The position numbers and the translations under genes were made by a program. DNA of 64,000 nucleotides, taken from Phoronis australis (taxonomy: Eukaryota > Animalia > Phoronida). The stretch lies in assembly GCA_002633005.1 (NCBI GenBank), contig NMRA01000344.1, positions 62,001 through 126,000 of the forward strand, read 5' to 3'. Under the pieces are notes generated by a model. That model searched no databases, was not told where the DNA came from, and worked only from the letters and a program-made list of their open reading frames with translations. Shown here piece by piece: positions 1,163 to 50,676 of this stretch; position 1 is the stretch's first letter; each line of letters opens with the position of its first letter.

Positions 1163-1300
1163 CATTTCTGAACCAACACGGCAAACAGCTCTATCAGGCT
1201 TACGCATGTCACTGGGACAATTTTTGGAATTCCCTCTGCAGTATTCGACACGATCGCATGAGTCGGTCTTGTCCCTACACACTTCCGTCGATGGTTTGAA
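1163..1300 (-). CDS. Module 4 disintegrin loop exon ([46 protein letters not shown])
   Basis: ttcaag/GTAAGT, 138 nt, phase 0 to 0; gene presumably continues past window position 1. Confidence 0.93.
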
Positions 1301-4300
1301 CTTGAACACAATTAAACAAACATTTCCGTTGAAGCGGCTATAAATTTAAATTCCATGTGCGAAGAGACAATTAGATTTAGACTATTTGCCGTTACAAAGT
1401 TGGTCCAAACTTGTTCCTTACTCAGATAACAAAAATGTTCGGCTTTAAAAAATGACAGCAGCGTAACTCATAATAACCATACTCGCCCGAAATGACACGT
1501 TAGCAGCCTGGTTCAAAGTAATAACGAACCGCCAGTTCTTTTGAAATCCTCAAATCAAGTCAACTTTTACAAAGGGGCAATATGACTGAAATTCTGTTGC
1601 AAAAGTAGTTTAAATCAAGCAAGATAGAAAGCGGGTGAAGTCAATTAAAATGGCAAGTAATACAAGCGTCTGAATCAATGGTATGAACAGATTTTCTTCT
1701 TTTCTGAAAATAGGCTTGTATGGGAGATAATGTCTCGTTGCATTTCGGTTTAAAAAGCATTGGACTATGTAGCTGGATGCGCAGGAGTCATAAATTTAAA
1801 ACGTTTCAGCTAAAAATACTCTCTTAGTTAAACCCCAATTCAATTCGCTTAAAATACGCTCTGTTCACACCCCAACCATACACGTATATCGGAGGAAGGT
1901 TCCAATGGAGTTGAACGGTAGTTGCCAACATTTCCAACATAACACTTGTGGGTGACGTCTTAAAACGTTGACGTCATATAAAATGCGTTGCTTTCTCGCG
2001 GAGAATTTATAATGTGTTAACTTAAAACGTTCAAGATGAAAGGTTTTAAAATGATCGTACGCACCCAACCTATGATAAGGACATTGGAACTGCCACCACG
2101 TTATTCTTGTTTTACAAGAATTTCATTGCGTAACCATATATTATAGACAACAGATTCGCAACTCTGACATTTTCTTCAGTGTTATCCAAGAGGCGGCGCC
2201 ACTCTCCTCATTTATCTGGTTCATTTCCCGGTTAGTGTATTGTGACGGGAAATTCTCACATCTATTTTACTGTCCAGTACAAAGAAAGCAAAATAATAAT
2301 TTCGGCATCGAAACGCTGTTCAAAATCTTAAAACAGTAGAACTGTTGGCATCGTGAGCACTTTTAGCAATGCTACTGCTACCCGACCACACAACAACCGA
2401 CCAAGATTAGCAGACGACGTACTTGCCGGAAGTAATGCCAAGTAATTGTTCCACGTGTCGTTAGTGAATAATGACGTAACGTTATGCGGACGAGCACACA
2501 TTTCGTCCATTGAAAGTATACGGAGTTGGCGGTCCATGTACTATAGTCTACGGTGTAAGGAAGTGATTAGAAATCAGACTACTTTCCACGTGTAGACTGA
2601 ACATCTTTTATGAATTAGGTCAAAGCTACGCGGCAAGAAAACGTTAACACCAATCGTCTACTGCACTCGGTAACAAAAGGATACGCGGAATAATGTCCAG
2701 TGGGATATGCCTTCATGTACGCCAATCCAGGTGCGTTTTTTTATTTATCCCATACGCTTCGAATTCTTAACTTACTTTCGTTTTTTCGGCAGATATTTAA
2801 ATACTTCACCCACACTGTTCACGTAGCGGATCACATGTACTTGCGCGTTAGATAAGAAGTTTTCTCACGAAAAAGAAGTTGTAAATGTAACAATTTATTG
2901 CTTAAAAAGAGACAACAAAGACGAAAGTAACGGTTTTTGTGCATTGAATTTGTAGCATTTCCTGAAAATAATTAAATAACAATATTTAACAATGCAGTTA
3001 CCGAGGAATCGGCACTGGGAAAGTTTGATGATCGAGCCCGCTACCCGAAGTTGATTCGACTTCGACTTACCTTTTGAACGTTTCATGTCAGAAGCCATTA
3101 TTAAAGTAGTCCCGGGAAAGCAATCCGGAGAACAGTATCACATGGCCATATTGTACTCGACTTATTCAACGCGTAAAAAGAACGTTTGGCAGCTACGTGA
3201 TGGAAAACCTATTGTAGCACTTTGAATTTCAGTGCCCAATGCTTTACCTGACAAACGTTCAGATCGCAGCAAGGTCCATCAGCACATTGTGACCTGGAAG
3301 TCAACGTGCACGTCCAAGGATCACAGCAGCGGTGGTTACACTGAGAGGGTAACCCGCAGTCGCATTGTTCGCCAGTTTCCACAATACCGTTCATGCATGT
3401 AGGCTTTGCCTGAAAAGACAATGTTTGACATTAAACGTTTACCTATTCTGAACAAAAACAAGTTAGACGAAAACCAAAGTTGTCATTGTTATTCAGATTT
3501 GTTAATTCAGGTCCCACTTTCAGCCTAAGGAGGAAATAACATACGTCAGAATTTGGAATCGTTGATTTTAAAGCTCAAGGATAGAGTGCAATTAGAAATC
3601 TCTTACCAAGCGTCATGTCTAACTATGGTGTGTTGACAGACCAATGCAGAAAGACTATAACCTGACGTTGCTACCGGCTGCACAATACTCTAGGAGTTGC
3701 AGCATATGACCACGCTGTGTGTCAGTCAATCCCCCCCCCTTGTTTGCCACACATGTACATGTATAAAACAGCAAAGGTCTGAGGAAATACATAGTTTATT
3801 AATTAACCCCGGAAATGAATATTATACGGTAGAAATACAATTTTACAGTGTGTGGAGTTTAGTTTGCGTGAGCGTGTGGGTAAGGGGCTCAGACTAGATT
3901 TCAAGTGTCTGATTGAGACAGCCGGCGCAATTGTAATGGTAACTATGGTTCGGTAATGCCGCTCCTATTCGATGCGCGCGTGATATCCCAGGCGACCGGC
4001 AGAAAAGCTGCGCATTGCTTCTAGCTGTTTCCGTCGTCTGCTCCACTGTGCAATGAAGAAAATTACTTCATTTTTAAAGAAAACAGAAGCTGAGTGACGA
4101 TGACGAAACAGAAACTAATGGCAGTAGTAAATTTTAATCGGAGCCTTAGTGAATTACACAGAAACTCATAATTCTCTGGGTCGTGGGATTTTACAGCGCT
4201 AGTCACGACTAACGACCAGGCCAAAGACAAAGTAGAGCCGTAGAGGACTGGCTACACCTCAGAAAAAAGGAAAATGCCTGATTTAGGAAGCGAAAACAGT

Positions 4301-4982
4301 CTTTCTCTGGGAAGAAAGGGAAACCCCCATCACGGCCCCCCTCATACGGCTTTACGTGCGTCTACAATCTCGCTTTGCGCTAGACAAAATGTTGCCCTCT
4401 CCTTATGAAATCCAAGATCTGCCTCTGCAGTACGGTGTTGAAAACGGAAATTTTAATAGCCCGGACGTTGTTGCAATAGAGGCTCAGATTTGGATTTAAT
4501 GTGGTTGTTCTCTTAAGTCAGGTACGGAAGTTCTAATCAGATAACGAGTTGGGAGCGAAGGCTCCTTGTAGGGGTCACAGGGAAGAGGGTGAAATGTTGA
4601 AGGCATCAGGCGTGAGGTATTCGTGTCCTCTGTGAAGCATGAAAGACATCAGAAAGATTTTACAGTGACTACATCTCTAATTAGGACGTCTACCACCAGC
4701 CCCTGCAGACGTGTGTGCTACCTTGCCTTTTGCGTATCTGTACGCGTTCTTTCAGTAATAATTTATATCTCACTTATTCACTTACCGTATTTGTTGTAAT
4801 AATGGATTGGCAAGTCGCGTTAACACACACCTAAATGAAGGAATGTCATGGATTACGAAGCAGAACGTCATCACAAATGTTTATGCTAAAGGAGATACAC
4901 GACTTATGATTAACTTACACACACGCACCCACAGACACAAACAGACAAACGCGTGCGCGCACACACACACAGACACAAACAC

Positions 4983-5018
<36 letters not shown>

Positions 5019-8000
5019 ACACACACACAAACACACATACTTACACATGCAAAAATCATTCGCATAAATAAAACTCTTGGACAGGGGAGAATTTCGATTA
5101 GCAACTTAACGGGCGAGACTGCTACTGAACCTCTTTGGAAAACATGTATTTTAAAAGTGTGTCATCCGAACTCCGAGCACAGAAATATAGTTTGTATTTC
5201 GTCCCGAAAAGTTGCACGAGTAACTTTCACCATTAAGACCAAGCATAACTACTCAAAATAGACCTACCTTCCCAATGCCGCAAATACTGCCGTCTTCAGT
5301 CATGCCAAAGTCGGGATTGGCCCTAAATGTGATGGCTCGGCATCCACCGTGGTTCATCATGAAGTCCGGGTAGGCGGAAAAGTGGTAGGCATCGCCGCCG
5401 CTACACTGCAGCGAACCGCACATCAAGTCCCTGTCGAGAGAAATGCTACATTTAACTTAAATATATAGTCTACATGTGGGTCGAAGAGAATGGATTAGAG
5501 TGGCCACTGTTACTGTACGTTTCATGCAATGATTCGTTAAGTCTGGTATAGGTAGCGTTGTTGTCTGGTACTGGGTTCTATTTAGTGTCATAAACAAGCA
5601 TAGCGTTAGCTTCCTGGGTCTTCTTTTCTCATTGCAGCAGCATAAGTTACGTGAGAACAATAGAAAGCTGCGATAGAGGTTGGGGAGTTGGTCATACATT
5701 AGCCGAAAAAGAAACGGGACCAACCAGTTACTGTTGGGTAAGCCAAGGACTGCGCTGTAGTGAAAGTAGAAGACGTGTTGAATGATGGTAATGGCTTGGG
5801 ATACACTGGACTAGATTCCGTTTTCCTCAAACACGAAGAAAGTCGTGTGAATGACGCACAATAGGATTTTGAGCGTTTTCAGTGTAAGACTAACATCAGC
5901 CAAAACAAAACTGACTTTGGCAAATAAGTGTCATAAATTATAGAAGTATGACTCTGATTACCGTTGTATCTAGTCTTAAGGGGTTCCCACCATGAACCTG
6001 TGTCTACAGCGGAATTTTTAATTACATATTTAGAGATTTGATAGCCTATAGTACAGCTGTGCTAAGAGACATGCCAAAGATTTTTAAAAATCATTTTTCT
6101 GTTATCGGTGTTGTACGTGATGGGTGAAAGATCGTCTCCGCCGTTGGTGTTTTACCAGAGCGTTACGATTTGCTAGGAAAGTCCGCGGAAAACTGCATTT
6201 TTCTGACCTGAAAAGATGTGTTCGTGGAGGCTACAACTTAACCGAGAGCGTCTCTGTGTTCGAATTTCTTAAAGACGTACAAATTGTACAGAAATGGCAT
6301 CAGTATGTGCGCTGTAAGAGAGTGTGGAACATACGATTCTGTCAGGAGCCCATGCATTGCTGTAGATGTAAAAAAGAGGTAAGTAGGCGCCCAAAGCCCG
6401 CCGTATCACCTTGAACACCGAACGTAATTTAAGGTGCGTAGGCGCTACGTTCAAATGTCAAAAGGTGGTTGGCTGCGCCAACGTGCGCCTACGCCCCACT
6501 ACAGCACTGCAGGAGCCACACATTTTTGGACTTATTTCAGTTAAGAAATCGCGTTGAATCGAGTGACCTTTGTCTGTGATTATTAATTGTCCATTTTGTG
6601 AATATTGACCACCCCTTAGTTCAGTTAGTTGTGGCTCACATACTGTATGTCTGCTGCATTTCTCGTGCACGTGGAGTTCATATGGCCTCTAAGCCGACAA
6701 AAGTTCACTGAGTGATAAATCGAATTCTCACTTTAAGTGTAATGCCGTATCCACTCTCCTCTGTCTACATGACAATTGTCCAGTTCTCGCTCAAAATCGT
6801 GCCCATCTTCTGACCTGCTGTGTTCCGCCATTGCAATAGCGGAGTTGCAACATGCAATGATTGCGCATGTCCGGAAATTAGTGTGTGCAAAACCTATTGG
6901 GATTGATAGACGTTTCAGGAATGGCCGACTGGTGTGCACGACGTGTGATTTGTGTGCATTAAACTACGCTGCTGTCTGTAGGTCAGTTTCCAACATACGT
7001 TTTCTTGCCGCCCTCAAAACAAAGATTTTATAGATACCTAAGATCTCCGACTTATGACCTAAATAGTCACAGCATTACAAGTAGCGCCACCTTCTGGAAG
7101 GCGCTCAAATACAGCATAATAACACGGTTGACTGTAATGCCACTGTGTCATCTGGTGCTTACAAAATACTTTGTTTCGCTTGCCTAAAGATAAGGAGAGG
7201 TAAGNCAATTGTCCAGTTCTCGCTCAAAATCGTGCCCATCTTCTGACCTGCTGTGTTCCGCCATTGCAATAGCGGAGTTGCAACATGCAATGATTGCGCA
7301 TGTCCGGAAATTAGTGTGCGCAAAACCTATTGGGATTGATAGACGTTTCAGGAATGGCCGACTGGTGTGCACGACGTGTGATTTGTGTGCATTAAACTAC
7401 GCTGCTGTCTGTAGGTCAGTTTCCAACATACGTTTTCTTGCCGCCCTCAAAATAAGCGCTGCATACTTTATGCCACGAAGTCGGAACAAATGCACTAAAT
7501 TGGGTAAAGACCTGCCGGTTTAACGGCTTTGTGAAGAGCAGTGGTTGTAACCTAATTCAATCTATGAATCAATATAAAGGTGGGTGTAGAAGTTCTCTTT
7601 GTAGTCGAGTCACATAACGCTCTAGCGACCACAGTTTATGACGAAAATGGCTGAAAATTTTATTGTATGATGAAAATTGAGGTGTTGACGCCTGAACAAG
7701 AGCGGTTTCATGCAGTTTGGTTTTGGTTCCGTTTCATTGGAAGCAGGTGAAGAGTCTAGCTTTTAGTGGATCGACGATAACACAACATTCTTCTTGAGGT
7801 TGTGTTAATACGCATTACGATGCTGTAAGGGTTCGTGTGGGTGTTGTATTCTCAAACACATCTTGATAAAAAACTTTCATCAGACTTGAATGAACACTGC
7901 TTATTTTAAGAGCCTAACTTGGCCTCTCCAGTACCATTAGGTCACAGACTTAAGTAACTGGTGTTCGTACATATGTATCATGCCGTTAAGAGGAGACTTC

Positions 8001-11000
8001 TTCATTGAGCAAGCTACAGCAGGTCAATTCATGCCTTGCGTAGCATCTTGCATCAGTTAACATGATGATAAACCTAAATTCATACAGTAAATTCTTTGAA
8101 ACAATCTTTAGAAGAACAGCCTACAGTCAGTTTTGGTTGAAGACACAAACGGCTTTGGCATCGCATTAAGGGAACGGTACATACTTTTGTAAGCATTGCT
8201 GGAAATTTCCATTGTTGCTGTCGTAACCACAATGGCCGGCGTGGTTGCCAACAGAGTTTTTCTTGTAGCAGTCAATATTTGCTACATGGGCTGATGATCC
8301 CCAGAGCAGTCTACATTTGGCGTTGCGACTCACGCACTTTCCTTCGTAGCAGTAAGACTACAAGACATAGAGACACGTTCTTGACATTAGGTGTTTAATA
8401 GTAACACACCATTAGAGATCATTTTTGCATAATATTTCACTGCCATCCACTTCCTGCATAATATAGCTCTTTGTCAAAAGCAAAACAATGGATTAAATAG
8501 AAGATGCCGTAGTTGATTCGCACCTTCGACTGAATACTTGTCATGATATCGCGGCCGCAAGCGATTACTCAATCGGCAGTAATGGGAAAACGACATGACA
8601 ACCGACACAGGAATCTGCGATACTTTTGAAAAATGCTCTGTTGTCTATAAAGACAGCCAGATTTGAACCCGGGTCTATAAATGAGAATTCGGGTCTCAAA
8701 ACACCGATCCACAGCTAGTGTCTATTCCTCCTATTGCAAGTTATTCAATTGATTCCACACTTGAATTTTTCTGAAATTCACCCTTCAGGTGATCGCTGCA
8801 ATGAGCCCACCTGAGCGGCCTGTGCATGTCTGGTACAACTTGTTTCCGACCCCATGCAATTATTTATATGACCCTACAGCAAAAGGCACAACATTAAAAA
8901 TACCGATTGAGTTGAGAGATAAAGTGTTGCACCTTGATTGCCTGAATGTCATATTGAGTGAGGGTTACGAGGCGAGAGAGAATCTTAGACGTTTCGGACA
9001 CGCGTACCAAATCGAAAATTCCTACCAACGACAAATCACGTCAGTCATTAAATCAAAATTCAAATACGGATTTCCTGATAGATCTGTACATACTCTGTCT
9101 CCCTCTATTGTGCACAGGTCTCCAGACTTAACCAGGTCGGCAGGACACTGGCTCGAGTGGCCGTCACACATTTCTTCTACGTCACATGTGCCGCGTGATG
9201 TTCTGCAGACGGTCCGAGCCGGGAGCAGCTTGAAACAGGCAAAGTTGCAGGTAAGCTAGATTGATGTTTCGATTTTTGTATAATTAAACAATAAGGCACC
9301 ATGTTGGCCGTAAAAACACGAATGAAATAAAATGTTTAAAGATTGGTTAAAGTTCACAATTTTTAAGATTGGCCATCATCTGAACAGAAATTCCGTTGCA
9401 ATAACTTGTTTGATTAAACAACAGAACTGAGGAATATCGTACACAACAACATACCTGGCACGTTTCTGTATTGCAGCATCCTCCCGTGGCGCATTGTGAG
9501 CCAGTCTTATATTGACACGTCATGGTGCAACAACGACTCGTGTAAAGGCAAGGGATACCACAGTCGCATTCTTCTCCACTGTCAACGCGGCCATTTCCAC
9601 AATCTACACAAGACCAACAAAGAGCGTTGACATGGCCCACGGCATGTTAAGTAAACTAGTAATAAAATAGTTATGATTAAAAAGGTGTTCATTACAGAAC
9701 CGGGGACATTCCTTCCAAAAAGGACATAAAAATATTGTTGAGCTCGAGCGGCCGAACGCAGTTGCTGTCTTGTCTTTGCGTGATGAAAGTAGCAAAGATA
9801 AGACAATGATTTAAATGGAAAACACTTACCCCAAAACAACTAAAATTGTCACTACAGATATGGCTGAACATTGAAAACAGTCGCTAGAACACACATCCCT
9901 ATAGATGTATTGTGTGGTTCAGAGTGATCAAGCAGAACGGAACAGCAATGTAAACTGGGTTCTTTTTCGTTATATTGCGACACCCAGACGTCGCCACATT
10001 AGGGTGAGTGCAACTGCGGATCAGTTTGAGCGTGTGAATTGGTGTGGCAACACATTTTCTTCTGACTGTGTTTGTTTCCCCTTTATACTGTGAAGGTTAT
10101 GTGAACTAGTAAGTGTAGGTCTTTTCACGTATTGAAGCACTCAGAACACGACGTTAAAAAACAATATTTTACTTATTTTTGTATTTTAGAAACCATAAAT
10201 GTACCGAGAAAATAAAGGATAACACGACTTCGTAGGATGTCTTGGTTGTTATAAACAAAATGAGGTCAGAGAGACCATTATAACCAAGTTTATAGAAATG
10301 AAGAGGTTTGCAACCCTCATTACGCTCCAGCGATTAGGTAGACCTCAAACGGACGTCAAATATATGACATCAACACCGGTTACGTAACGGCATTAGGCTG
10401 TTCTCAGAATTGACCTATCGCAACCCCCGCCCCTTACTTAATACGTCGACAAACAACCTTCATGTATAAGTTTCACCCGGCAACGTGTTGTATGTCGGAT
10501 AAAATGGCGGCTTTGAAACTAAGATGTGTCAAAAATGATGCGTTCTGATTGGTCAGTTGAGCCACGGCTGAAATTGGATGTCATTACTGCTGTTGTTCTC
10601 TAATTAAGCGCGCTGTGGGGACAAGAACTGCCTTGTGCAACAGATTCATACAGTGCTAGTCTTTTTGTTGAAAGGCAGTTGGTGTCAAACTATGCATTTA
10701 ATGGGATTGCGTATAGGCGACTCAGTTAGGTCTAAACGAAATGTACACGTGTCTTCCCCATGCCAAAAAACGCATCCATTAGATTTCTTGAAGATACCTC
10801 TAAGAGATTTATCAAGAATGAGACATAAGCAAAACAGATTCCGTGATCTGCATGGTAGACCTGTACTAAGACATCAAAGCAGGTTTAACTTTAGACCTGG
10901 TCATGTCAGCTGTGTATGCAGAGTAGACTTACTTTTTGAAAACAAGGGGATTGAGATTAAAAAGCTTGTTTAGACGGGAGCCATTTCAAAAATTGATTAT

Positions 11001-14000
11001 TTCTTATTGATCGGCAAGCACGGTATTGTTTGAAAATATAACTATAACCTTCTGTAGTTTGCTACGAAGAGCTGAATTCAGACTGTAATCTTTGACTTGC
11101 GACTTAATCTATACGTGAGGATACCCACCGTGTTATCATTTTTGTCTCTTTTTGAATTCATTCCTGTTCAAAGAACTAGTGCTCGTTCCACGATATAAGT
11201 TCGAAATTGCTTTAAGCTGAATTCTAGATGAAGACATTTTTCGTGAACTTCCGGTCACTTGGAAATTAGAATAGCTGGCAACGGACGTACCAAACACACC
11301 CAATTTCATGTGGAACGAGCAACAGTATTCAGTGGTTTAATTGAGTTATTTGACCTAGGTTTCATTGAAAGTAGGTTGTAAGGAAAGAAAACGGCCAACG
11401 TCGAAATCAGCGATGTTAAATAAGCGGTAAAATAGCGGCTGCTATATGCCTATCGAATAATCTGTACCTGGACGTGGATTTGTCATAGACAAAAACGAAA
11501 ATGTGTTATAGTTTCTTTTAGTCCAATCTACAGCAACTTCTCTACTGAGTACGACTGTACATTGAATCTAAGTGAACACATTACCTTCAAGTAGGCCAAC
11601 CTCCTGAAATTTCTAAAAGTAACCTCCCCCGCTTTCGATAATGATCATACAGTAATTCTTCTTGTCTAATGGTCGTTCTCCGTGACATGGACATGTTCAG
11701 TATAAAAGTGCTCATGATTTGAAAATTTTGGAAAAATGTCCGGCGGACGCCCTTCTACTAGCTCACGTAATAAAGAGAAAATAACACTTACTAGAGGAAG
11801 GTGCTGGTGCCCCGCTGTGCACGCTTCCACCGGCTCCTGAAGAGCTACATGTCGGTGGCGTGTAACCAGAGTCGCAATAGCAGTCTCCTGCGTTGTCACA
11901 AACCTGAGACAGACAGCAACTACAGAACTACCAGCATTGAACACCATCTTGTTCCTACATGACTTAGTTATTCACGGGAGATTAGCATAAAATCGCTGTG
12001 GACGAGAAGATCAAACAACTTGAAAACATTTTGTATTGCGTGAGGCAAGTATGAAGAGAACAAACTTTTTATCGTTTCATAAGAAATTATTACAGAACAG
12101 AAAAGGATTTGAACTTATCATGTGTTGTATGTGTAATCGTTGACGAATGACATGAGCGTCTCTTCACCAACCGTACACGTGTTAAGCCAAATTGAACAGC
12201 AGTGAAATTAGTAGTGCTTTCAACACTTTCAGTTAAGCCGGTGTCTTGCAACATCACACAGCAGTTGGAATGAAATATCCCGCCAGCATTTGCTTAGTAA
12301 ACAACTGGAGATACACTTCAAACAAAATGGCCGTCATTGGCAACACTTAGACGGCCACTAAAAACAGTGCAGGTGGCCTGATGTCATTTGTGGTGCATCA
12401 GACGTGCCTCATGGTTGGACCTATTGCAAAAAACACCTGAGGTAAAGCACGAGAGCCCCGTTCTTCGGGAAGGAACTTTTCAACTCTGCCAGTCTCCTTT
12501 AAGAAAACAGACAGACGTTTCCATTTGTTGACATGTATTATATGTTGTAGGCATGTAACGGTGACATCCAATAGGTAGCTCCTTAGCCTATAAAAAGCTG
12601 GGCAAGACTCTGCCAGATATTTAGGGGACACACTAGGCACCCCACATGCTCAGTAATGTGACTGTGTCGGGTTAGGTTACAGAGCCCTTTAAAATTTGAA
12701 TCTATCTACACTCAGAAGTTTTTTTTTTAATCTTTTGGTGGATCACGTTGGGAAAATTCTCCTTGGTCTATCTGCAGGGGTTAAGTGATGGCCATTGGGC
12801 TATTGACTGGATGTGTGTATTTATTCTGCAGCACCCGTAAGGTGCAACAGTTTTGCCGTCAACAATGACACATACACTCACATTAAAATCATACTGGACA
12901 TCGTCAAAATTCAATAAGGTTTGGTGCGCCAAAACGCAACTAAACATCCTTTTCTTTTCAACTATAATCCGTGTCAATACTGGGTTAATGAAACAAAACA
13001 TCCAATAAACGCACTTACACCATGGGAAGAGCAAAGGCAGGTGTCTGGTCTTGAAATATCTTGGCATTTTTGATCCACACACATCTGCGGAACACATTTC
13101 ATTACAACATACCATACGAGCGTCTCACCAACACTTCTCGGATCCAAAAACTGCTTTATACATACAAACATGAATCTCTTGTCAAAAGCAATAACGTCTG
13201 TTTTTTTCAATCGCAGTAAACGTATTTTGCAAGCTTGCTGAGATTAGAAGTGATTTCTGGGCTTGAATGAAAGAACGGACAATTCTCTATTCACCACTTG
13301 CACGCATTCGGCAAAACGAGGCCACCTGTCAAACTTCGCAAACATGGTTCATTGCTGTGTGCCGCTGTGCAGTAACTCGTCCAAGAAAAAGTCGTCATTT
13401 TCCTTCCATAAGTTTCCGAGTGACCAGACAGTACGCAACAAGTGGATAGTTAATATCCGTAGAGATCCAGGAAAAGACATTAACGTAAGTTTACAGACAA
13501 TTGCCTTCGAAATAATCCGATTGAAATCCTTGAAAGCCGGTGTCCTGTCATGGCCACTTCTCCCGTTTCCACACGTCGTAAGGTCGATTGTAAATAGGCT
13601 ACTTGAAAAAAAGACTTATTTTTGCCAAATTGTTAAACGCTTTCGTGTGTTTGACAATGTAATTTTTGTCTAAGACGCATTCTTTTGATCTTACCGAATA
13701 TTTATGCGATTTAATCCCATCGTTGGTCTGCTCGGCCTGAGCCTGACTGACTGTACTCACTGAATTGGTACGTCAGGTACGCGTCCCCTTACAAAAATGA
13801 ACTTGAGTTTTCATCGAAGAACTTAAATTTTGGTCTGAAAAACTTATGTTTTCATTCACGAAAACTTAAGTTTTTGGCGAAAAGTTAAGTATTTTGGAAC
13901 AAGTTTTTGGGACGAACTTAAGTTTTTCAAAAACTTAAGTTCTGAAAACGTTTTTCAAAAACCTGAGTTCTGAAAACGGCGGCTTACTCGGTGTACGATG

Positions 14001-28885: not shown

Positions 28886-28932
<47 letters not shown>

Positions 28933-37900: not shown

Positions 37901-40900
37901 CACGTGTTAAAATATAGGGGTATGTACACTACACAAATGTAACATTTCACTCAAAACAAATGCATTTGTAATTAACACCCTTTTAACCTAGCATTTTAAT
38001 GGAGGAAACTGTGTGTGACAAATGTTGCATACTTACCATTTAATATTTTTGTTTCATGGTATTTGTTCACATCGGGGTACGTACACTACATTTCCATGAC
38101 ATGTCAGGTTTGTAACTAAATACTAAGAATCTACTGAGAGTTAGTTGATTTACTAAATCAATTCAAAGAGAAAAAATAAAAAAACACAGCATTCATGCGC
38201 ATATTTGCCATACTGAAAAAGGCACAAATTAAAATATGGGGATACGTACACTACACAAATGCTAATAGTTCTCTCAAAACAAATGTATTTGCAATAAATA
38301 CCCTTTTAACCTAACATTTTAAGAAGAGAAACTGTCTATGACCAATGTTGCTCACTTACCAAGTGATATAATTTTCATGGCATTTTTAATCATGGGGGTA
38401 CATACACTACAAAAGGAGGTACGTACACTACATCACTGTTTCTGCATCACATGGTAACATAATATTGTATGGACATTTATTTTTCTTTTGTGATAATAAG
38501 CACCATGTTGTTATTTAAAAGGCAATAATTTCATTTGTAATGACCAGTTGTGTCATTGGATTTCACATGGGGGTACGTACACTACATTTTGTTAGCCTTT
38601 TTGGCCCATTTTCACCATAGCAGAACCCAGTCAATATCCAAACTTTCGGTTTGTTTAGATATTGAATAATTTGCCGTAATGCCTAGGCTAACATATTCTA
38701 CAGTAGTTCTTTTTATTACAGAGTGTGAACTTTAGTTTTTAACCCTTTTTACAGTAGCTGAGGGTTAGAAACGCTAAATTCACAAATTTCGTAACGAGTG
38801 CCTGTTTTATGATGAACCCTACCATTTCCCAATGATTAAGCACAACTTCGTCTAAGTGACTCTGAAAGTGACTCAATTTATTCCCAGTCATATCAAAGCA
38901 ATTGCTTACTTAATAAAATAGATTTCTTTTCTACTGTTGACAGTTGAAAATTGTAATTTTTAAAATGGTCACTCGTAACGCTAAAAATGCATGAAATTCA
39001 TAGACAAAAAGATGCATAAATTTCTCAAACATTGTCCGATTTTGATGATTTTTTTTAATTTGCACAACTAAATAACTCTTTGCCATTTGGTAAGTAACCA
39101 AAAAAAATTATTTTAGACTGCAACACAGTCAAATCTTGAATATGGACCTTGATTGTGATTTAGCAATTAGGGGGGAGAGGGCACAGGTATAACCAGAATT
39201 TCGGCACATGCGCGCTCCAAGCCTAAAATTTAGGGATGCGGGAGTCTCGAATTTTAGGGTTTGCTGACCTGATTACAAAGAAAAAACGGTAAACGGGGTT
39301 TGTTCAAGGTCTATGCATTGTTTATTCGCCCCCGAGCCCCCGTGGATGAGCACCCGGACTGCCAAATGGTATCTGGTAGAATTTTAGGGGGGCCATGGCC
39401 CCCTTGCCCACCCTCTCTCAATCCGCCACTGCCACCAGACTGCACACCGATGGTGAAATACGGCTTTTCCGATGAATACGGCTTCTACCGTGATATACAG
39501 ATTGGCTCTACTTTCCCGTATATCACACTTGAATACGTCACATATACAATGGCTATATTTTCATTTGGGTTAAATATAGATTATTACATGGCGAAGTCGT
39601 TATCCCCCGTTATCTAGAGCCCGAGTGGATTTTGGAGAATTATCGCCCGAGGGCCGTTAGCCCTGAGGGTGATAATTCTACAAAATCCACGAGGGCTCTA
39701 GATAAGGGGGATAACGACTGAGAACATGTAATAATCTATTTATACCACATACTAAACGAGAAACATTGCAATGAATCGATCTACCTTTCTCGACTCGCCT
39801 CGGCTTTGTAACTACTTTCTATGTCAGAGGCCCGGGGTCGGAGGTCGTGACCTTTTAAGAAAAGCCGAGCTATTTTTGTCAAATAATNNNNNNNNNNNNN
39901 NNNNNNNNNNNNNNNNNNNNNNNNNNNNNNNNNNNNNNNNNNNNNNNNNNNNNNNNNNNNNNNNNNNNNNNNNNNNNNNNNNNNNNNNNNNNNNNNNNNN
40001 NNNNNNNNNNNNNNNNNNNNNNNNNNNNNNNNNNNNNNNNNNNNNNNNNNNNNNNNNNNNNNNNNNNNNNNNNNNNNNNNNNNNNNNNNNNNNNNNNNNN
40101 NNNNNNNNNNNNNNNNNNNNNNNNNNNNNNNNNNNNNNNNNNNNNNNNNNNNNNNNNNNNNNNNNNNNNNNNNNNNNNNNNNNNNNNNNNNNNNNNNNNN
40201 NNNNNNNNNNNNNNNNNNNNNNNNNNNNNNNNNTATTTTTCGGAGCGTATAAGTACAGTACAATGCAGTTTGTTGAACGTGCGATTATTGCGCGTGCTCA
40301 TTTAAGTATTCTATTTTCACACTTACTGACGTCAGTCGCTGCGTGGTGTAGTGGTTAAAGTCGGCGACCAGCAATATTAGGGTCCCGGGTTCGACCCCGT
40401 CCTCGGTTTCCCGCCAAATCGTTATCTCACTAGTGAGATAACTTTATGGGTTATTACACGGTTGTATCTGCCATTTGACGCTTTTATTGTGGTATAAACA
40501 TGTTTATCCCAGCTGTGTACTGACTACTGATGATATCGAGTGTTGTTTTTGCTATTTAAGTTTCTATTGACCATCTGGCCAAGAAGTGGCAGTTCTTTGT
40601 TCCAGACATGACTTAATTAGCCCCGCTTTTCTTTGACTTACTCTTGATGGCATGCAGTCACACTTTCATCCAGGGTGTCAACACCACAGTCGCCAAAATG
40701 GCCGCCGACGGCGTTCAGTTGGAAGTTCTCGGGGCACGCAACTGACGCTGGACCATAGATCTGTTGACAGGCACGTTTGACAGTGTTGCACTCTCCATTA
40801 TAGCAGTGGGACTGGAAAAACACCGGCACTAAAGTTGAACATGCACAAACCAAATTTATCCAACGGTGCGTAAGCAAGATATCTACCAATGTTGTCATCA

Positions 40901-43900
40901 AGATGTCTACTGATGTTGGTGCTGCCAATGATGCTGCTACAATTGCTGCTGTATGTGTTGGTGCTGCTTCAGCTTAAACTGCAAAACAACGACTTACATT
41001 TTCTCCTTGAAACGAGCACCTTGTTCCGTTCGGCCTGTGAAGATCAGCAGGACAGAATTCTGTTTCTCCTGTACAGTATTCGGGAGTGTCGCAGAATCCT
41101 TTTGACGCTCGACAAACTGATCCAGCTGTTATCTAAAAGAGATGATTATTCAAAGTACGACTAACCATTGACAAGGATGGGGATATAAGGGGCAAAATTA
41201 TTACTATCGGACACTCAATTCAAGAAAATAAACTTAATCTAATGATGCTACATATCTGATACTACTTTGTGAATCAAAAGTCGCTTCAACAGCTTCATTT
41301 GGTCTGTTTCATGCAATTTCAAGAATCGGATGTCAACACAACTTCTTTCAAATTAAGAAAACATTTTAATCGACTTTCTGAAGAGAGCCGTTATAAGGAA
41401 CCGAACCAACCATCTTCGAAATTGCAGAGTCAAGTGTTGTCACTTTGGTAAAAGCTTCAAGAAGTGTATCCCATAAAACAACGGATAACGCCCCGCTGTA
41501 CAGACACGGGTGCATCTGGGATTTACTACATGTTTGTCGTGTGAGGAACACATTATATAGTTCTGGGAGATGTTCATTAACCCATGTCAAAATGCTTCGA
41601 AACGTTTGCTTCTGAAAGCAAGACATAAAACTTAGTGGTGTAAAACAAGGTTGTGACGCTAAACAATATTATTAGAATGTGTCATTTGTAACAGAGTACA
41701 AAGTAATTCAATGACAAAAAAACGGTAGTTTTGTCGACCTCCGCAATGGGTTTTGTCAGCGTGGCGGAGAGCTCAACAATTCTGTTGATGACCAAAAGCA
41801 TTGTTCCCGAGTGTCCAAGTTGGCGATACCGGCGAGGGATGATGATGGCATCATTGTGACGTTTGAAGTCGTGTGCTATCACCAAACGAAGAATCTTTAA
41901 AACTAAACGCTCCCTCAATTGATGTAAAAATCATGTTCAAAGGTTATATGAATTAGCCACTGTTATTAAATAACGACTACTTTGTATTTGTTGAGCGCCA
42001 TACGTTAAATAGAGGACTGACCTTGTTTAGCTTTTTAAAACCATGAACGTCAGGGCCCGGACTAAACAGTTCGTAAACGAAATCAAACTCGTGTTTTTAG
42101 CATTTTCCGGTCTACTTATTGAGTGAATTCCACATAAGTGTCAATTAGTCTGTGCTCGAGTGCATCGCTGTAAATGCTTACGAATTTCTAGTCCAGATTC
42201 GCACTTGTTGATCTCTAGATTCAAGCTGCAGACTCGAGCAAATGGTTGAGATTTTGAAGAAAAACTCGAAACTTCGATTTCAGATTCAAACCGTTAAATT
42301 TAATGCTGGTGTGCAAACTACATGTCGGTCAGTGCAATTATCCTCATTAGCCAGTACATGCATGTACTCGAGCATAAAACATAGATATTGTATTTGAGTT
42401 TCCACAAACGTAGAATAGAAAATACCAAAGTAATTTGGAGTTCGACTTCGGTTAAAATTATTAGACAGCGTGACCTCATTTATCATTGCTTTAAATTTCA
42501 TTTCCCACAACAAGACAACACGGAATGATTTGCTTTCCGAAGCCGGCCCTTTTTTGGAATATTGGATGAATACCTTTAAAACTAACTGAACAGCTATACT
42601 CTAGATTACTGAAACAATCACGTTAACATTTCACCGCTGCATTTCTTCTCGACAGTTGCTGTTGGTTTTTGAGAATGGAGCTATTCGGAGAATTCTCATC
42701 GCGGTGTCGCTGTTGTACTACTGGCGATTGAATTGCGGGCGTCGCTGTCGGCATGTAAACAGCTGGCGAGTTTCCAGTTAGTCAAAGTGATGTCACCGGA
42801 ATGAGGGCAAAACCCGCCATATTGTTCTTGTTTTGTCCCGAGTCTTTGCTACACACGCGAAATCTTACTGGAGTATTTATGCCGAAGTTTACGCTTAAAA
42901 CGTTAACACGATTTAAGGGATGGTAGACGGATCGTGGAATAAATGTGAATGGACGAAGAAACTTCTTATGTTGTGCGAAGCTGTGAACGGACTGAAATTG
43001 GAACCCGACCCTGTCTAGGCCTGAATGCCGCGGGCATACAGGGGCGATAGTAGCCTGTATCGCCATAGAAAGTTTCTCATTTTAAAATACAGCAAATAAA
43101 ATCAATTGAAACATGCATATGTGCACATGGAGCTATAATTAACACATACCCTGACTCTGGATACAATTTAGTCTACAAATAACTTGAACATATCCATCAA
43201 AACCTCACGGTTCGCTTGAGTTTCTCTCACCGGGCGCTATTTTGAGGACGTTACGTCAAATCACGCCTGTTGACGACCAAAAAGTCCAAGGGACACATAT
43301 CTTACAAATTTCACTTGATATTTTCTCATGCTATTGTGCAGGTGTCACGCGCCAGGTCACGCACTTCGCTCAGTCTCACCTGACTCAGTGGTTATCGCAA
43401 GCGCGGACAAAGTTAACAGTAATCAAAAAGTGGAGTTGGAATTCTTCGCCAAAGTCACCTGAATTCCCGTAGCTATGCTTCATCGAAGATATGCTTAGAA
43501 GCAGAAAGGATCACTGAAGAAAGTACGCGCCTTTTAGGTGATAATTTTAGGTGTAGACTGTATTTTTGATGAGATGAAAACTTAATCAGTGAGCCGATTT
43601 CGCCTACCGCCCGTTTAAACTACACGGGACGAAATTAGTACAGAACGCGATGGAACGTATTGTAGTGCGAATCTGAATTTCATTTGCCATGCTTGTTTGA
43701 CATTTTTCACACTAAAAGATTAAAAACTAGAAGTAGCCAACAGAATACACTCTGCTACCGTATCGGGCAAATGGCAAAACGACAAGCTTTTGCCCCACTT
43801 CCGGTGACGTCACAGTTAAGTCTCACATAATCTCGCGTTATTGTTATAAACTCGCAAAAGGACTAGGGTTATCAAAATACGTCGTCTCGCTAAGCCTCAT

Positions 43901-46900
43901 TATTGCTATTGTCCCTGGTGCAAGTCTTCGACAGGTAGTCACAAATTCCTAAAAGAACTAAGGTTGCCACACGAATGGAAAATTGCGGTCAAAAGGGTCA
44001 ACCAAATGACAAGAAGTGTGTGGATGCCGGAGCCTTACTGTGTACTCTATGCATTCCCATTGAGAGACCATATAACGGTACTTGTTAAGATTTTAGCAAC
44101 CAGTTTCTATCGACATCGTTCGGTGATGTTATCCCCACCAGCTACCCCCACTCAATAACGGGTTTATTCAGTGGAACAAAGTGTCTTTTCACGGAAACTC
44201 ACCCGGGACCCGGATGGTAGGCTACCAGCACATATTCACGTTGTAGGTGGGAGTGCGCCCAATGTAAGAGGTGTATGGTGCGTGACGCTCAGAAGTCAAG
44301 GGTGACTTTTTCACAGCAGTTTCTCTTCAAAACTATGCTGTGTCCGATAAAATTCTCTAGATGAGTGAGTTTCCTTATTTTATAGCGCACCCCACCCCCA
44401 GAACTACCAGATTAGTTACCGAATTTACATGAATGAGCTATTCAGCAAATGTCGTAACATTGCATTGGAATAAAAATTGAACCTAGAATGAATTTTATTT
44501 GTTGAGATCAGAAACACATTTAAGGTGGCATGAAAAATACACATTATTAAATCACTTTTAGCCTGTTTCACATATTTTAATTCAGATCTTAAATTAGACT
44601 TGGGTACAAAGATTATTAGTTGATGCATATAAACATGAAGATGAAACGTCAAGACTATGTTCTGCCTTACAAAAGTAGTTTTGTCTTGTGTTTTCTTTTA
44701 TAATTTGCTAATATTTCCCTGATTATTCTGTTACAGGTGAGAGAAAACGACTGAAACCAGACGCCTGACTGTCTATTTAACCTTTGGACAACGTAAAAAG
44801 CAATCCTTCAGCAATAACCTAAGACAATTGAACCTAATTCAGAAAGTCAGCCCTTGATATGCCTGATTATGGACTCCGTTACATTGGGAAAATTACAATT
44901 GTTTTTAATCATGTTGTTTCTTTGTATGTGTGTGGTTGTTCAGTTTGCCATTTCGTTTTTAAATACACTGATACTTTTTTTTCAAACCTTGTGCATAGCA
45001 AATTCTTATCCAGCTAGCTACAATTGAAAACTTACTTTTCTTTCATGTGGAACTCTTGTTGACAAGTTAACACCAAATTTAAAATTGTTCAAAGGCCTTC
45101 TTAAGAAAGCTCTAAAAATAATTACAAACACAGATCAAATGCAAACAAACGGAATACTTCATTTTGATCGCTGCGCATTTCTATAGGTCAACAGGAAAAT
45201 GACAATTCGCAAGCGTAATCAGTAATAATTTCACCTTTATAAAGAATCAGCACGGCTGCATTGTATGGGGGTTTAAAACTGAAGAAATATTGTGGTTTCC
45301 ATAATTAGTGACAAATTTGCCTGTTGATGAAAAATTTATTCGATCATCAAAGTGTAACATCAACGGACTTTCTATTGACAATAAGACAATCGATGCAGTC
45401 ACTGAATGTCATTTCCCCCAATAATGTGTACCAAATTGAAACGTTTTACCGTTAGTATAATGCCTTTCTTCTGAAAGGAAAGGTTAATGTTACTCCATGA
45501 GAAAGGACAGGTATTTACACCAGATTCTTTTGGTTTTCATTTCACTGGGATCTAGTTTCAGTGACCTATAGACAGATTCCATAACGGAAACAGCCGAATC
45601 CTGGGGAGCGCCATATTGAGGTCACGCCATTACAGGCATGGCAGACTAAACACTGAAGTCAGTACAGTCTGTCTGTAAATTAAGCCTTCTGAGCTGGTGT
45701 GTCTGCTTGTGTTTTGTATTTGGTAGCAGATCAGCTGTTTTGAAATCATTGATAGGGGATGAAACTATAGCCAGTACAAATCGCACAATACTGCAAAGTA
45801 TATGGTTAAAATTGCACTAAATCATGGGTACACCAAGTACGTATCTAAAGCATTTAGGGGTAGGTGCAGTGACAAATACCTAATTGTAGAAAAATCTGGA
45901 TTTCTGGAATACCTTTTACCTAAAGACGCAGTTGTGGCAAGTAGAGGTTTTACTATTGATGACCAACTGTTTTCAAGACGAGTTAAGTTAAACACACCAG
46001 CTTTCACCAAAGGTAAGTCACACCCGTAGTTAAAAAGATCTGACAAAAACACCACGTGTTTCCACAGTTAGAATCCATGTGGAGCGAGCAAAACGAAGAC
46101 TTAGTTTTCAAAATTTTGAGTACCGTTTTCAAAATTTTGAGTACCGGTATTCCAGTGTCAAGCACAAAATCAGCGCATAACTACTTGATTGTGTGTGCTG
46201 GCCGGGATTGTGAACCTATGTGCTGATCTGATCAGAAATCAAAAGTTGGAAGACATGGACTAACTTACAGAGTTTTTATGTTGCCCATTCCAAGTGATAG
46301 CATGCACTGTTTCCTTTGGGGAAAGTTGGTATACAATTTGAGAAATTGCAATTTATACCAAAGGTGTACTGAGGCAAAGCATGCATGTGTCATAATATAT
46401 GATTCAAATATGGCTGGCTTGGAAAAACATTCAAAGTACTTCAAGCAATGAAGACGGTAAAGGCTTTGCAAAAGTAAATCCTCTTAGCCTCAACTTCGTC
46501 CACGAGGCGTTCAAGAAATTTCTGAAAGTAAAATGTACGCAATCGTGCAACACTTTGCTCAACAAAGCTTTCACTGTATGGCACACCTATGTCATAATAA
46601 AGTCATTGTCACGAACTTTAAAATTAGCGCACGTGAATAAACTTCGTGCTTCTGTTTTGGCCTAAAACAAATGTGATCAAAGTCATTGTCAGTTGTGTAC
46701 AAAACAAGTTTTGCTTTCTTAAGTCCAGTACAAAACATGGTTGTTGATACTATTTTTTAAATGGACTGCTTGATATGGGTATCACCAGGAAAGTAATGTT
46801 GTGCAACTGAACTAAGTGACTCACGAAAATAATCTTAAGAACTTAGGGAAATCATAAGAAATTCATCACAATGTTGCCATAATAGGAAATGGTTATTTGG

Positions 46901-49900
46901 CTCTGGGATGTTTCTGTGAACACTGTTTCATCCTGTTTAGAACATGTGTGGGATGGATTCCAGCACATCTTTGATTCCAGGGAACAGTTCAGCCTCAATG
47001 AAGAAAGTAAACAAGTATATGAACAAACCTGGAACAGATCCATTTGAAATAATTAAAACATAAGTTAGAACAATAAACAAACATCAAATTTATGTCACAT
47101 CACATATTTAATAACACACAGACCTTGTATAATCCAATAACACGACTTTGAATAGCTCACTAGCATGCTGAACAGCTGCGCTGTTTTTGTTTTTGGCATT
47201 CTTGTAATGGCTGACTTGGGTATGCGAAGCCTGTGGCTATAGTACGAAGTTACAAGATCTCTATCTGTAAAAAGGTCCAGTTTCGGCACGTGGCTTTTCT
47301 TCGTGCAACCTCGTTCAGCCACACATGACTCATTGCCTATAAAAGGGCATCCTCACCAATGAGGTTGGCTTGTGTAGCAGTTTGATATAGTTCCTTTTCA
47401 AACACAAACAATCCACTGGCACATTGTCTTAAGGTAACTTAGTACTGCGATTCACATTTCTCCAAGGCCACTGACTTGTACAGCTTGTCTATTTTGCGGC
47501 TTGGAGTGGCCTTAAAATGTCACTGAACCTGGAACAAATATTAAAATGTGAATTATTAAGTACTCCATGTTGGGTCAAAAATGCTACCCCTGTTTTGCAA
47601 AAATACCATATGGTGACTGCTCTACAATTTCACACAAAATTAAATAATTACTATTTCAAGAAAGCAAGGGTGTATATAATAAGTATTGTATAAAACTGCC
47701 TCTTTATTTTTCATTCATAGCCATAAGAATTCTTTAAACGTATCACTTGTCTCCAAAGTATGCAAGTTATTTGAGACAACTTTAAAGTTTTAAAAAACCT
47801 TTGTTACCCATTTTCAAGTCTTAGATACTTTCAGCAATTTCAAACTCCAATTACAGATTCATGGCATACTTCTGGTCTAAGGCTGAGGGAACAGTTTTTC
47901 AGACATTTTTATTTTTTTCTAATTGAAGATATGAAGACTTGGGTCATTTAAAAAATGATGGATAATCTTTCTGTTGTTTAAAAGTAATTACAAATCGTAA
48001 GGCACCATCAAAAATGCAATTTTCACAAAAAATAGTAGTTATTTGACTTTATAAACGACTTGCTACATTTCAAGGCATGAGTTAAGACTATTCAGTCATT
48101 GAGAATTCAGAAAATGTAATATATTTTTATGGGTTTACAATTGATAGCAAAACAGTTTCATGAAATAAACTCAAAGGAACTTCATGAAGGTTAAGAATTA
48201 CCTCACCATGCTCTTTTACCCAGACACTAAATTACCTGTTATTTCCACACATTCAGTTGCACCAAATTTTACACCCCAACCCTCTATGCCAACCCCTCGC
48301 TAAGGACCTGAATAAGTAAATTAACAAAACGACTTACATACCTTTCTTTAAAAATAGATGTCCCTTTTCAAAGACTTTGTTCGATGTCTCCGATATAGAA
48401 AGTAGGCTTTGACAACAGATCTGAACTGGATGGGAAGATCTTGCTTGTTAGCTGCAGTCAACTGTTTAAAACCAATTTTTGTCCATTCAAGGACGGTGGA
48501 GAAGCGATGAATATCTCCTCTGCGCGGTACAAGCCCTCAAACCTAAAAACCGAAGGTCACGTGAAAACAGACATGATAGATTTCCATTTCAACGTGTAAT
48601 AGATTTCCGGAAGACAGGATAGGGAGTAAACAAATAGTCTAATGCCAATGAATATTTGTCACGTACTCTTTGCCATTGGGCTTGGATTGTGACCTTAACC
48701 CACTAACCAATATCGAGTTGACAGCATAAACATTCAGCATTGATTGATATAACTGTCACTGATAAACCTGTTAAAAATCATTCCAGACATTAATAATACT
48801 GCCTTGACATACGAAAAGATCCCGAGTGTAACGTCAAGTCTCGTAACAGACATCAAAACAAACAAAGATTAACCCAACTGGCCACCGCCGCGAAGTCGAC
48901 ACCGGCGAGTAGCCTACCTCAGTCAACAAGCATCAGTAAAATAAACATGGAATAATCGTTAAAGTAATCACAAACCTTACCTTTGTATAAGGTCGTGCTT
49001 ACTTCCTCTCATAGAAGCCCTTTTTACGCAATCTCAGATTCAGTTGGCACGGCTGCAAGCCATTTCTCTCGAAAACGAGGCTGCTTAATCTATCCACGCG
49101 CGCCCTCTAGTTAATGTAAATTTTCCGAATAGCCCATTCCATCTGCAAATGGCTTCCCTGACGGATTGCCTGATTATTCAAGGTGAAGACTATAAACAAC
49201 TCTTAAGAAACGCAGCCTGGTCTGAAGAAGTCCGAAGGGAAGTTCAAAGTCCGAACTCATGGGCGGCCCTAGGATTTTGAGTTAGGGCGGCACGCTGAAG
49301 TACTAGCCAGGATTTTGCCCGTCAGACATTCACACCCCCGAAGTGACAAATGGAATCTGGGAGAATTTTAGGGGGACATGGCCTCTTTGGCTTCCCTCTA
49401 TATCCGTCTCTGGAACCTGATATATCTGCGGGATAATTCTTGTAGAAAGTTGATGCAGGAGGGTTTTAAACTAAATCAAAGACGTCTGGCAAGACTGTGG
49501 TTCCGGGGTCTTAAAGTAGCGGCAGTGCATTTATCGTCACCAATGAATTTCGTTATTTTTGTTTGGAAACGATACTTTTTGTCCACACTACGATTTTCCG
49601 CCAATGTACATGTAAGAGCAAATTATGGCATGACGCTGTTTTACATGCAAGGATAACTTCGATGCGTCTCTGCATTGGCGACCAAAGTGTGTTTTCTGGC
49701 AATGGTCTTACAACCCTGTAGCATCAGGATCACGTAGACAAAGCCAAATGGTTCGTGCAGGTTTTATGGTTAGATAGATTGCCTTTTCGTTAATGGTTGG
49801 AGTAGGTGGCCCATGCACAGTCTGTAGGAACAAATTTCCACTCGCTCCGTGCAAGCCTTAAAAAAAGAAAAACATCCGAACCAGCGTGTCTGCGGACATG

Positions 49901-50676
49901 CAATGACTGGTCATCACAGAGAGTGCACTAGTGGAGCATCCAACTCGTGATGTCGACAGAACTTGTGTGTGAAGTGTTCCTGGCCCTTAAGGTGAATTTC
50001 AGTGCACAATGTCAGTTAGTTAATACCAGAAAATTTTATACGGGGATTTTACATGAAAAAGTTCGTACCACGGGTGTTTTAGGTCCCAAGCAAAGTAAGT
50101 TAGGTTGAAATAAAGTGCCTTTCAGCGTAATGCTTAAGTCTTACAGAGCAGGTGTCGAGATCGCAACACGGCCCAGTAGCACAATGGGCATTCTCCACCA
50201 ATTTGCATGTCTCAGCCTGGCAGCATTTGTTGGTACAGAACATCACCAGACCACAGTCACACTGTTCGCTATCTTCGACTAACCCATTGCCACACCTCGG
50301 ACCATACATAATACTGTCTGGAACGTTCAGTAAGCAGATGTCTTTACCCAAACGAGCGGTGTCCAGTAAGGCCTGCACAGAACAGTCAGACCACGAAAAG
50401 GAAGTATCCCTGTAGGAATTAAATGGAACTACGAGCGATCGTCTTGCACAGACCTTTGCTTTTAACGTAAGTTACGTTATTATATCACCTAGATTTGGAA
50501 CTCAGTAGAATGTATTGGGTGGACACAGTGAGTGTATGTAATAATTAATAATAAATACTTAATTTATTAGAATATTGCAATTAAACACATAACTTGTCCA
50601 TATACATACACATATACATACAATCATACATGCATACATACGTACATACATACATACATACATGCATTCCTCTACG

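Follow-up and report, generated by a model that had tools for sequence, protein, structure and literature searches.

Organisation of the gene

The minus strand of a 64,000-nucleotide stretch of the Phoronis australis genome (contig NMRA01000344.1, positions 62,001 to 126,000; hereafter the window, with positions counted from its first letter) carries a gene model of 26 exons with AG/GT ends, which runs from 63530 to 1163 and comprises 1175 codons without a stop, in a locus with 39% GC and long introns. The chain is of the ADAM type: a prodomain (pro) and one metalloprotease (M) domain are followed by tandem modules, each consisting of a disintegrin (D) and a cysteine-rich (C) domain, in the order pro - M - D-C - D-C-EGF - D-C - D, and the gene runs past both ends of the window. 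Modules 1 to 3 are linked in RNA and module 4 is known from DNA.

Six-frame translation and inspection of splice sites gave 18 minus-strand exons within 50409-1163, the part covered by the original prediction, with AG/GT ends, compatible phases and 110 cysteines, and the 881 codons were open throughout, as that prediction had claimed. Eight exons upstream (63530-51620), encoding the prodomain and the metalloprotease, lay outside its coordinates and carry the frame to 26 exons. The exon 52944-52857 and the acceptor at 51756 are the best picks in the model, chosen from the DNA, and the signal peptide and earlier exons probably lie beyond 64000.

The exon sizes agreed with those described originally: a loop exon of 132-138 nt, a first Cys-rich exon (Cys-rich-a) of 170-173 nt ending in phase 2, a second one (Cys-rich-b) of 163-202 nt and a short exon of 45-72 nt. 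The proposed five-exon cassette, three times complete and a fourth time begun, was recovered in the exon model, but its description had overlooked an additional 112-nt EGF exon (11903-11792, EGF_2 E 0.0014), present after module 2 only. The EGF domain is whole in module 2, a half-domain in module 1 and absent in module 3. The short exon of module 1 (24162-24233) still encodes the first two cysteines of the EGF type, but the exon with their usual partners is missing; these two may form a disulfide together or remain available for bonds between chains. Introns stand at identical alignment columns and in identical phases in modules 1 to 3, the first one also in module 4, which bears out the claim that cysteine spacing and intron phases are kept.

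When the exons were searched singly, each of the 8 disintegrin-half exons matched Pfam Disintegrin (E 7e-10 to 9e-6) and ADAM_CR matched the three Cys-rich-a exons (E 6e-12 to 2e-7); on the Cys-rich-b exons ADAM_CR was weak in two (E 0.04 and 0.08) and did not match the third. Pfam Reprolysin matched two stretches upstream of module 1. We also made hidden Markov models (HMMs) of our own from homologues; searched against the window in six frames, they detected eight disintegrin-half and six Cys-rich exons, on the minus strand only. The same scan placed prodomain and metalloprotease exons only upstream of 50145, and downstream of it no such match was better than an independent E-value (iE) of 0.9, in keeping with the statement that neither kind of exon lies between modules.

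No hydrophobic or transmembrane (TM) segment was found in the 1175 residues (best 19-residue mean 1.27). A hydrophobic, stop-free stretch at 9742 was considered as a hidden TM exon after the EGF domain and corresponded to the pyrimidine tract before the acceptor at 9603; it was rejected because reads join 11792 directly to 9603 and the depth there fits the exon alone. An assembly gap of 346 N (39888-40233) inside module 1 is spanned by spliced reads. The exons are listed below in the order of transcription, with reads given as X1/X2 for two RNA runs.

63452-63530 (-), first prodomain exon found; weak match of own HMM, AG/GT ends, fitting phase
60608-60690 (-), prodomain exon with the CYYQG...STC core; own prodomain HMM iE 8e-12, no Pfam match alone
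59292-59460 (-), prodomain exon without the Cys-switch cysteine; own HMM, frame
58113-58196 (-), prodomain end and beginning of the M domain, with furin-type RLRR spanning the junction; own HMM, frame
57235-57306 (-), M domain exon; own M HMM iE 0.03, phase fits
54198-54367 (-), M domain exon; Pfam Reprolysin E 1.8e-7
52857-52944 (-), candidate M domain exon (best pick); consensus donor and required phase, HMM match weak
51620-51756 (-), M domain exon, zinc motif degenerate, Met-turn CLMD; Pfam Reprolysin E 1.6e-7, 3' end joined to 50409 (76/73 reads)
50145-50409 (-), M domain end and disintegrin-a, module 1; Pfam Disintegrin, joint to 41132 (141/80 reads)
40998-41132 (-), disintegrin loop, module 1; Pfam, joint to 40811 (152/98 reads)
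40642-40811 (-), Cys-rich-a, module 1; ADAM_CR, loose ends into 28332 across the N gap (92/48 reads)
28131-28332 (-), Cys-rich-b (hypervariable region), module 1; Pfam/HMM, end seen in the loose ends of exon 24233 (109 reads of X1)
24162-24233 (-), short Cys exon, module 1; joint to 23920 (76/64 reads)
23756-23920 (-), disintegrin-a, module 2; Pfam, joint to 22824 (130/74 reads)
22693-22824 (-), disintegrin loop, module 2; Pfam, joint to 20963 (109/69 reads)
20794-20963 (-), Cys-rich-a, module 2; Pfam, joint to 19407 (99/94 reads)
19218-19407 (-), Cys-rich-b, module 2; Pfam/HMM, joint to 13084 (143/126 reads)
13019-13084 (-), short Cys exon, module 2 (EGF start); joint to 11903 (119/80 reads)
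11792-11903 (-), EGF-like exon, module 2 only; EGF_2 E 0.0014, joint to 9603 (87/79 reads)
9455-9603 (-), disintegrin-a, module 3, phase-1 acceptor; Pfam, joint to 9228 (58/68 reads)
9094-9228 (-), disintegrin loop, module 3; Pfam, joint to 8357 (86/83 reads)
8185-8357 (-), Cys-rich-a, module 3; Pfam, loose ends into 5430 (115/108 reads)
5268-5430 (-), Cys-rich-b, module 3; own HMM, start seen in reads
4786-4830 (-), short Cys exon, module 3, without EGF cysteines; AG/GTAAGT, in frame (DNA)
3248-3409 (-), disintegrin-a, module 4; Pfam Disintegrin E 7e-10 (DNA)
1163-1300 (-), disintegrin loop, module 4; Pfam Disintegrin E 1.7e-7 (DNA); the gene continues past position 1

Splicing of the modules in RNA

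Four RNA runs labelled as the same species were used, three of them as raw reads (X1, X2 and X3). Reads were mapped on 7600-26700 (four runs) and on 40300-50560 (X1 and X2 only), so that 15 of the model's 25 introns were covered. All 15 junctions were supported. Joints account for 11 of them (X1 and X2, 58-152 reads) and the remaining four are loose ends whose consensus was the neighbouring exon (48-115 reads; that of 24233 was listed for X1 only), the intron with the 346-N gap being spanned in 92/48 reads. They form an unbroken series from the exon of the zinc site to Cys-rich-b of module 3, and in all joints the first mate lay on the plus strand, as expected for minus-strand RNA. Two of the three module boundaries for which the original prediction had proposed a check, 24162 to 23920 (module 1 to 2, 76/64 reads) and 11792 to 9603 (EGF to module 3, 87/79 reads), were found spliced. 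Since read support was undiminished past modules 1 and 2, the major form does not end after either of them, and the proposal of one transcript with tandem modules agrees with these data. We also considered that modules might be mutually exclusive, or that splicing might pass from 24162 straight to the EGF exon; among the joints listed, none was of either kind. Among the exon differences listed between reads and genome, two were conservative (M to L and T to S).

X3 (11.0 million records) contained no junction read, although repeats in the same stretch were covered. As X1 and X2 express the gene, its expression seems therefore to be restricted by tissue, sex or stage. The contig set of 2015 (X4) had no junction and is uninformative either way.

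The prodomain and metalloprotease head

The prodomain was recognised by an own HMM made from 49 homologous prodomains (iE 2e-29, residues 2-131 of the model) and the M domain by another (iE 1e-55), whereas single short prodomain exons did not match the Pfam propeptide. Together they are 31-34% identical to the best database matches. When the zinc motif was read from the DNA against HEXXHXXGXXH, the first His, the Glu, the Gly and the Met-turn were kept, and the second and third His were replaced by Gln and Asp. In M12B enzymes all three His bind zinc (PMC4885070). Because two of the three zinc-binding His are lost, the metalloprotease domain is predicted to be inactive. No cysteine of the Cys switch was found in its usual exon, a weak sign, as the pattern detects it in only 28 of 49 homologues. 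The furin-type RLRR before the M domain was the only such site found in the chain.

Divergence, constraint and origin of the modules

The modules are 38-46% identical to one another, and 30-35% when cysteines are left out. Sister modules ranked 33rd to 133rd of 174, that is, no closer mutually than to foreign ADAMs. Between modules, identity was 30-37% at third positions and 8-35% at fourfold-degenerate sites, which is the level of chance and indicates saturation. Of the 28 cysteines of the family, modules 1, 2 and 3 nevertheless keep 27, 28 and 27 (in the alignment a cysteine stands 2-3 residues from each of the two missing positions), together with 21-22 of 24 further columns of the framework. 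In module 4, 16 of 16 cysteines and 14 of 15 other conserved columns are present. Silent sites that are saturated beside a framework so well preserved agree with the original suggestion of old duplications under purifying selection.

The consensus of calcium site III is present in all four modules, and that of site II also in all four by a relaxed pattern (G to M in modules 2 and 4, E to D in modules 2 and 3). No RGD was found in any module, the loops being of the XCD type of ADAMs. The Cys-rich-b exon, with the hypervariable region (HVR), is the most variable in length (163-202 nt), with 49, 45 and 36 residues between the flanking motifs. The linkers after the EGF domain and after module 3 are short, rich in Ser, Thr and Pro, and probably exposed; module 1 passes into module 2 almost without a linker.

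We propose that the modules would have arisen by old in-frame duplication of an exon block, followed by divergence, possibly as a block of two modules (D-C, D-C-EGF). Such a two-module duplication is suggested by a Met common to modules 2 and 4 where 287 of 288 homologous D domains have Gly, by the phase-0 acceptors of these two modules and their pairing in the tree (SH-aLRT 82), and by the pairing (81) of modules 1 and 3, both of which are without an EGF exon. Three observations weigh against it: over 93 columns the overall identity of modules 2 and 4 is 45%, versus 48% for modules 1 and 2; the pairing has the fewest shared quartet sites (3); and modules 1 and 3 are joined as long branches. 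A single origin of modules 1 to 3 had a tree support of 64 and, in the approximately unbiased (AU) test, whose tree excluded rows without a name and one very long branch, p was 0.57, so that it is neither rejected nor proven. The trees, in which ADAM11/22/23 were absent, place the modules on long unsupported branches.

Comparison with known proteins

The best matches were meltrin-type ADAMs (MEROPS M12B; the ADAM8/9/12/15/19/28/33 group with its invertebrate relatives) encoded in genomes of annelids, molluscs, brachiopods, nemerteans, nematodes and arthropods, with 38-45% identity over D-C. They share with our gene the usual order of pro, M12B, disintegrin, ADAM_CR and EGF domains, the 28-cysteine pattern of D-C and calcium sites II and III, and differ in having a single D-C unit and a mostly intact zinc motif. 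The inactive vertebrate ADAMs (ADAM2, 7, 11, 18, 22, 23, 29 and 32) resemble it in their degenerate zinc motif and restricted expression, and ADAM22 structures were among the PDB matches of the exon with the M end and the disintegrin; however, they have one D-C-E unit (E, EGF) beside the membrane. The loss of activity may be independent of theirs. Some inactive ADAMs serve as adhesion molecules (PMC4885070). P-III snake venom metalloproteinases, the top PDB sequence matches of the same exon, also have M-D-C, but they are active, with a single D-C and no EGF, and we saw no sign of a venom protein here.

In contrast to the canonical ADAM, with one D-C(-E) unit per chain, the present gene has three RNA-linked units and a fourth in DNA. 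The original prediction knew of no family with this layout. Among 294 proteins gathered from top matches of single-exon queries and hence a biased sample, 178 were M-D-C and none was D-C-D-C-D, so that annotated homologues of this architecture were not found there. Full-text searches, with most subscription papers outside their scope, gave no account of an ADAM with tandem D-C units. As far as the parts available go, PMC1867822, PMC4550289 and PMC10381214 describe the canonical layout and small numbers of invertebrate ADAMs without a tandem form, and "tandem disintegrin" in PMC7590139 means D adjoining C, not repeated modules.

At least two disintegrin domains occurred in 10 of the 294 entries: P0073 (Helobdella), P0109 (Halotydeus), P0159 and P0273 (Petrolisthes), P0157 (Sciurus), P0290 and P0292 (Macrostomum), P0160 (Diceros), P0044 and P0002. 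Seven of these ten also repeat the M domain. Several look like fused models, because P0157 also contains IDO and the Petrolisthes entry corresponds to two adjacent genes in a sister species. P0290 and P0292 show M-D three times and are suggested to be fused as well, since their cluster mates have only 522-537 aa. P0160 is M-D-D with a long gap, and P0002 consists of repeated half-domains. P0044 (448 aa) combines a degenerate M-like region with two disintegrin domains in tandem, an EGF-like end and a hydrophobic tail, but lacks a Cys-rich domain, and its sequence marks it as a separate case of disintegrin duplication.

Word-index searches of proteins of up to 2000 residues, which are weak, gave 16 candidates for the first disintegrin exon and 136 for the three Cys-rich-a exons, none of them significant. 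A profile search (best 120 of 220) and phmmer (best 150 of 1113) found distant ADAMs only, identity in the latter being at most about 60% over an 88-residue query, and the ESM Atlas contained only clusters of short disintegrin or reprolysin fragments.

Interpretation

The reading that we favour, with moderate confidence, is that of one ADAM-type chain with a predicted dead head and three complete D-C modules, likely with a fourth, forming an elongated, multi-site protein of adhesion or recognition, probably restricted to some tissues. The prodomain would be cut off at RLRR, and the dead head together with three or more different HVRs would bind partners on cells or matrix, by likeness to the inactive vertebrate ADAMs, which are thought to bind in this way. 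The D-C arm is described as rigid and stabilised by disulfides and calcium, with the disintegrin loop buried, and the HVR of the Cys-rich domain as a proposed, unproven contact surface (PMC4885070); D-C units of ADAM13 and ADAM9 are reported to bind matrix or cells (PMC7590139).

Several points weigh against this reading. The short reads establish which exons adjoin, not that all of them stand in a single full-length molecule; besides the joints listed there are 37 weaker ones in 7600-26700; there was no orthologue among the matches listed; and the conserved residues shown are structural only, which fits equally well a rigid stalk, the strongest of the alternatives. Here only the dead head would bind, and the tandem D-C arms would hold it at a distance from the membrane or bridge a broad cleft. 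What the modules conserve is indeed the disulfide and calcium framework, with non-cysteine identity of only 30-35%, and PMC4885070 presents the D domain as a scaffold whose loop is buried. Yet every module keeps a full Cys-rich domain with an HVR segment of 36-49 residues, which a pure spacer would not need and whose length is one that ADAMs with a single module also show (19-57 residues among the 33 units, out of 172, in which a pattern could measure it); besides, the head has also strongly diverged, with 33-36% identity to its best matches. We regard the stalk as a serious contender of clearly lower probability.

Some P-III venom enzymes yield processed D-C fragments. A precursor cleaved between modules, releasing soluble disintegrin/Cys-rich units, would agree with the probably exposed linkers after EGF and module 3 and with the lack of a hydrophobic segment in the 1175 residues seen, but it seems improbable, considering that the sole furin-type site precedes the M domain, that the chain's own protease site is degenerate and that modules 1 and 2 are almost without a linker. 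We give even less credit to a head still active, or at least metal-binding through unusual ligands, with the modules as extra exosites: the first His, catalytic Glu, Gly and Met-turn are kept and a furin-type site precedes the domain, but Gln and Asp stand in place of two His that M12B enzymes use for zinc (PMC4885070), and, more weakly, the usual Cys-switch exon has no Cys (pattern found in 28 of 49 homologues). A false merger of neighbouring ADAM genes, or of pseudogene pieces, for which the N gap in module 1 and the fused models usually behind multi-disintegrin entries might speak, is hardly credible given 1175 codons without a stop and no M or prodomain exon between modules, and is refuted for modules 1 to 3 by spliced reads across the gap and both boundaries.

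The ADAM ectodomain is regarded as a fixed C-shaped M-D-C unit, with the Cys-rich hand facing the protease site of its own chain. In the gene described here, D-C arms have been kept under constraint, beyond saturation of silent sites, without a neighbouring protease domain, and the sole head is predicted to be dead, from which we argue that the D-C unit may have a role of its own. A single protein with three or four such modules makes independent ligand binding by HVRs testable. More tentatively, and with somewhat less confidence than in a multi-site chain as such, the gene might represent undescribed, lineage-specific, protease-dead ADAM receptors in which a (D-C, D-C-EGF) block is repeated, perhaps with many further modules, each carrying a different HVR: a multivalent recognition rod restricted by tissue or sex. 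If so, the rod could serve, for example, in gamete or cell-type recognition and would be a natural test system for independent D-C ligand binding. So far this is one gene in one animal, with a function predicted from its sequence.

Other elements in the window

Several other elements lie in the window. A nested element on the minus strand at 15655-16854, in the intron from 19218 to 13084, contains a CxC...CxH stretch that looks SWIM-like by eye, and a frame of lambda-exonuclease/YqaJ type split into two pieces that overlap (Pfam Viral_alk_exo E 2e-8, YqaJ E 1e-6), with hardly any reads; it is probably a degenerate DNA transposon. A fragment of a THAP domain (E 6e-7) lies at 26409-26585 (minus strand), within the repeat region 24800-26700, which is heavily covered on both strands, in all runs, by reads that are 90-95% alike. 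In a prodomain intron, a remnant of a reverse transcriptase of the long interspersed nuclear element (LINE) type was found at 61268-62460 (minus strand, RVT_1 E 1e-4). A 250-nt direct repeat, 99% identical, at 6773-7022 and 7206-7455, with a single N at 7205, in the intron from 8185 to 5430, is likely an artefact of contig overlap. Inverted repeat pairs at 21129-21320/22191-22383 and 55224-55302/55577-55655, and a 164-nt palindrome at 39576-39739, resemble miniature inverted-repeat transposable elements (MITEs).

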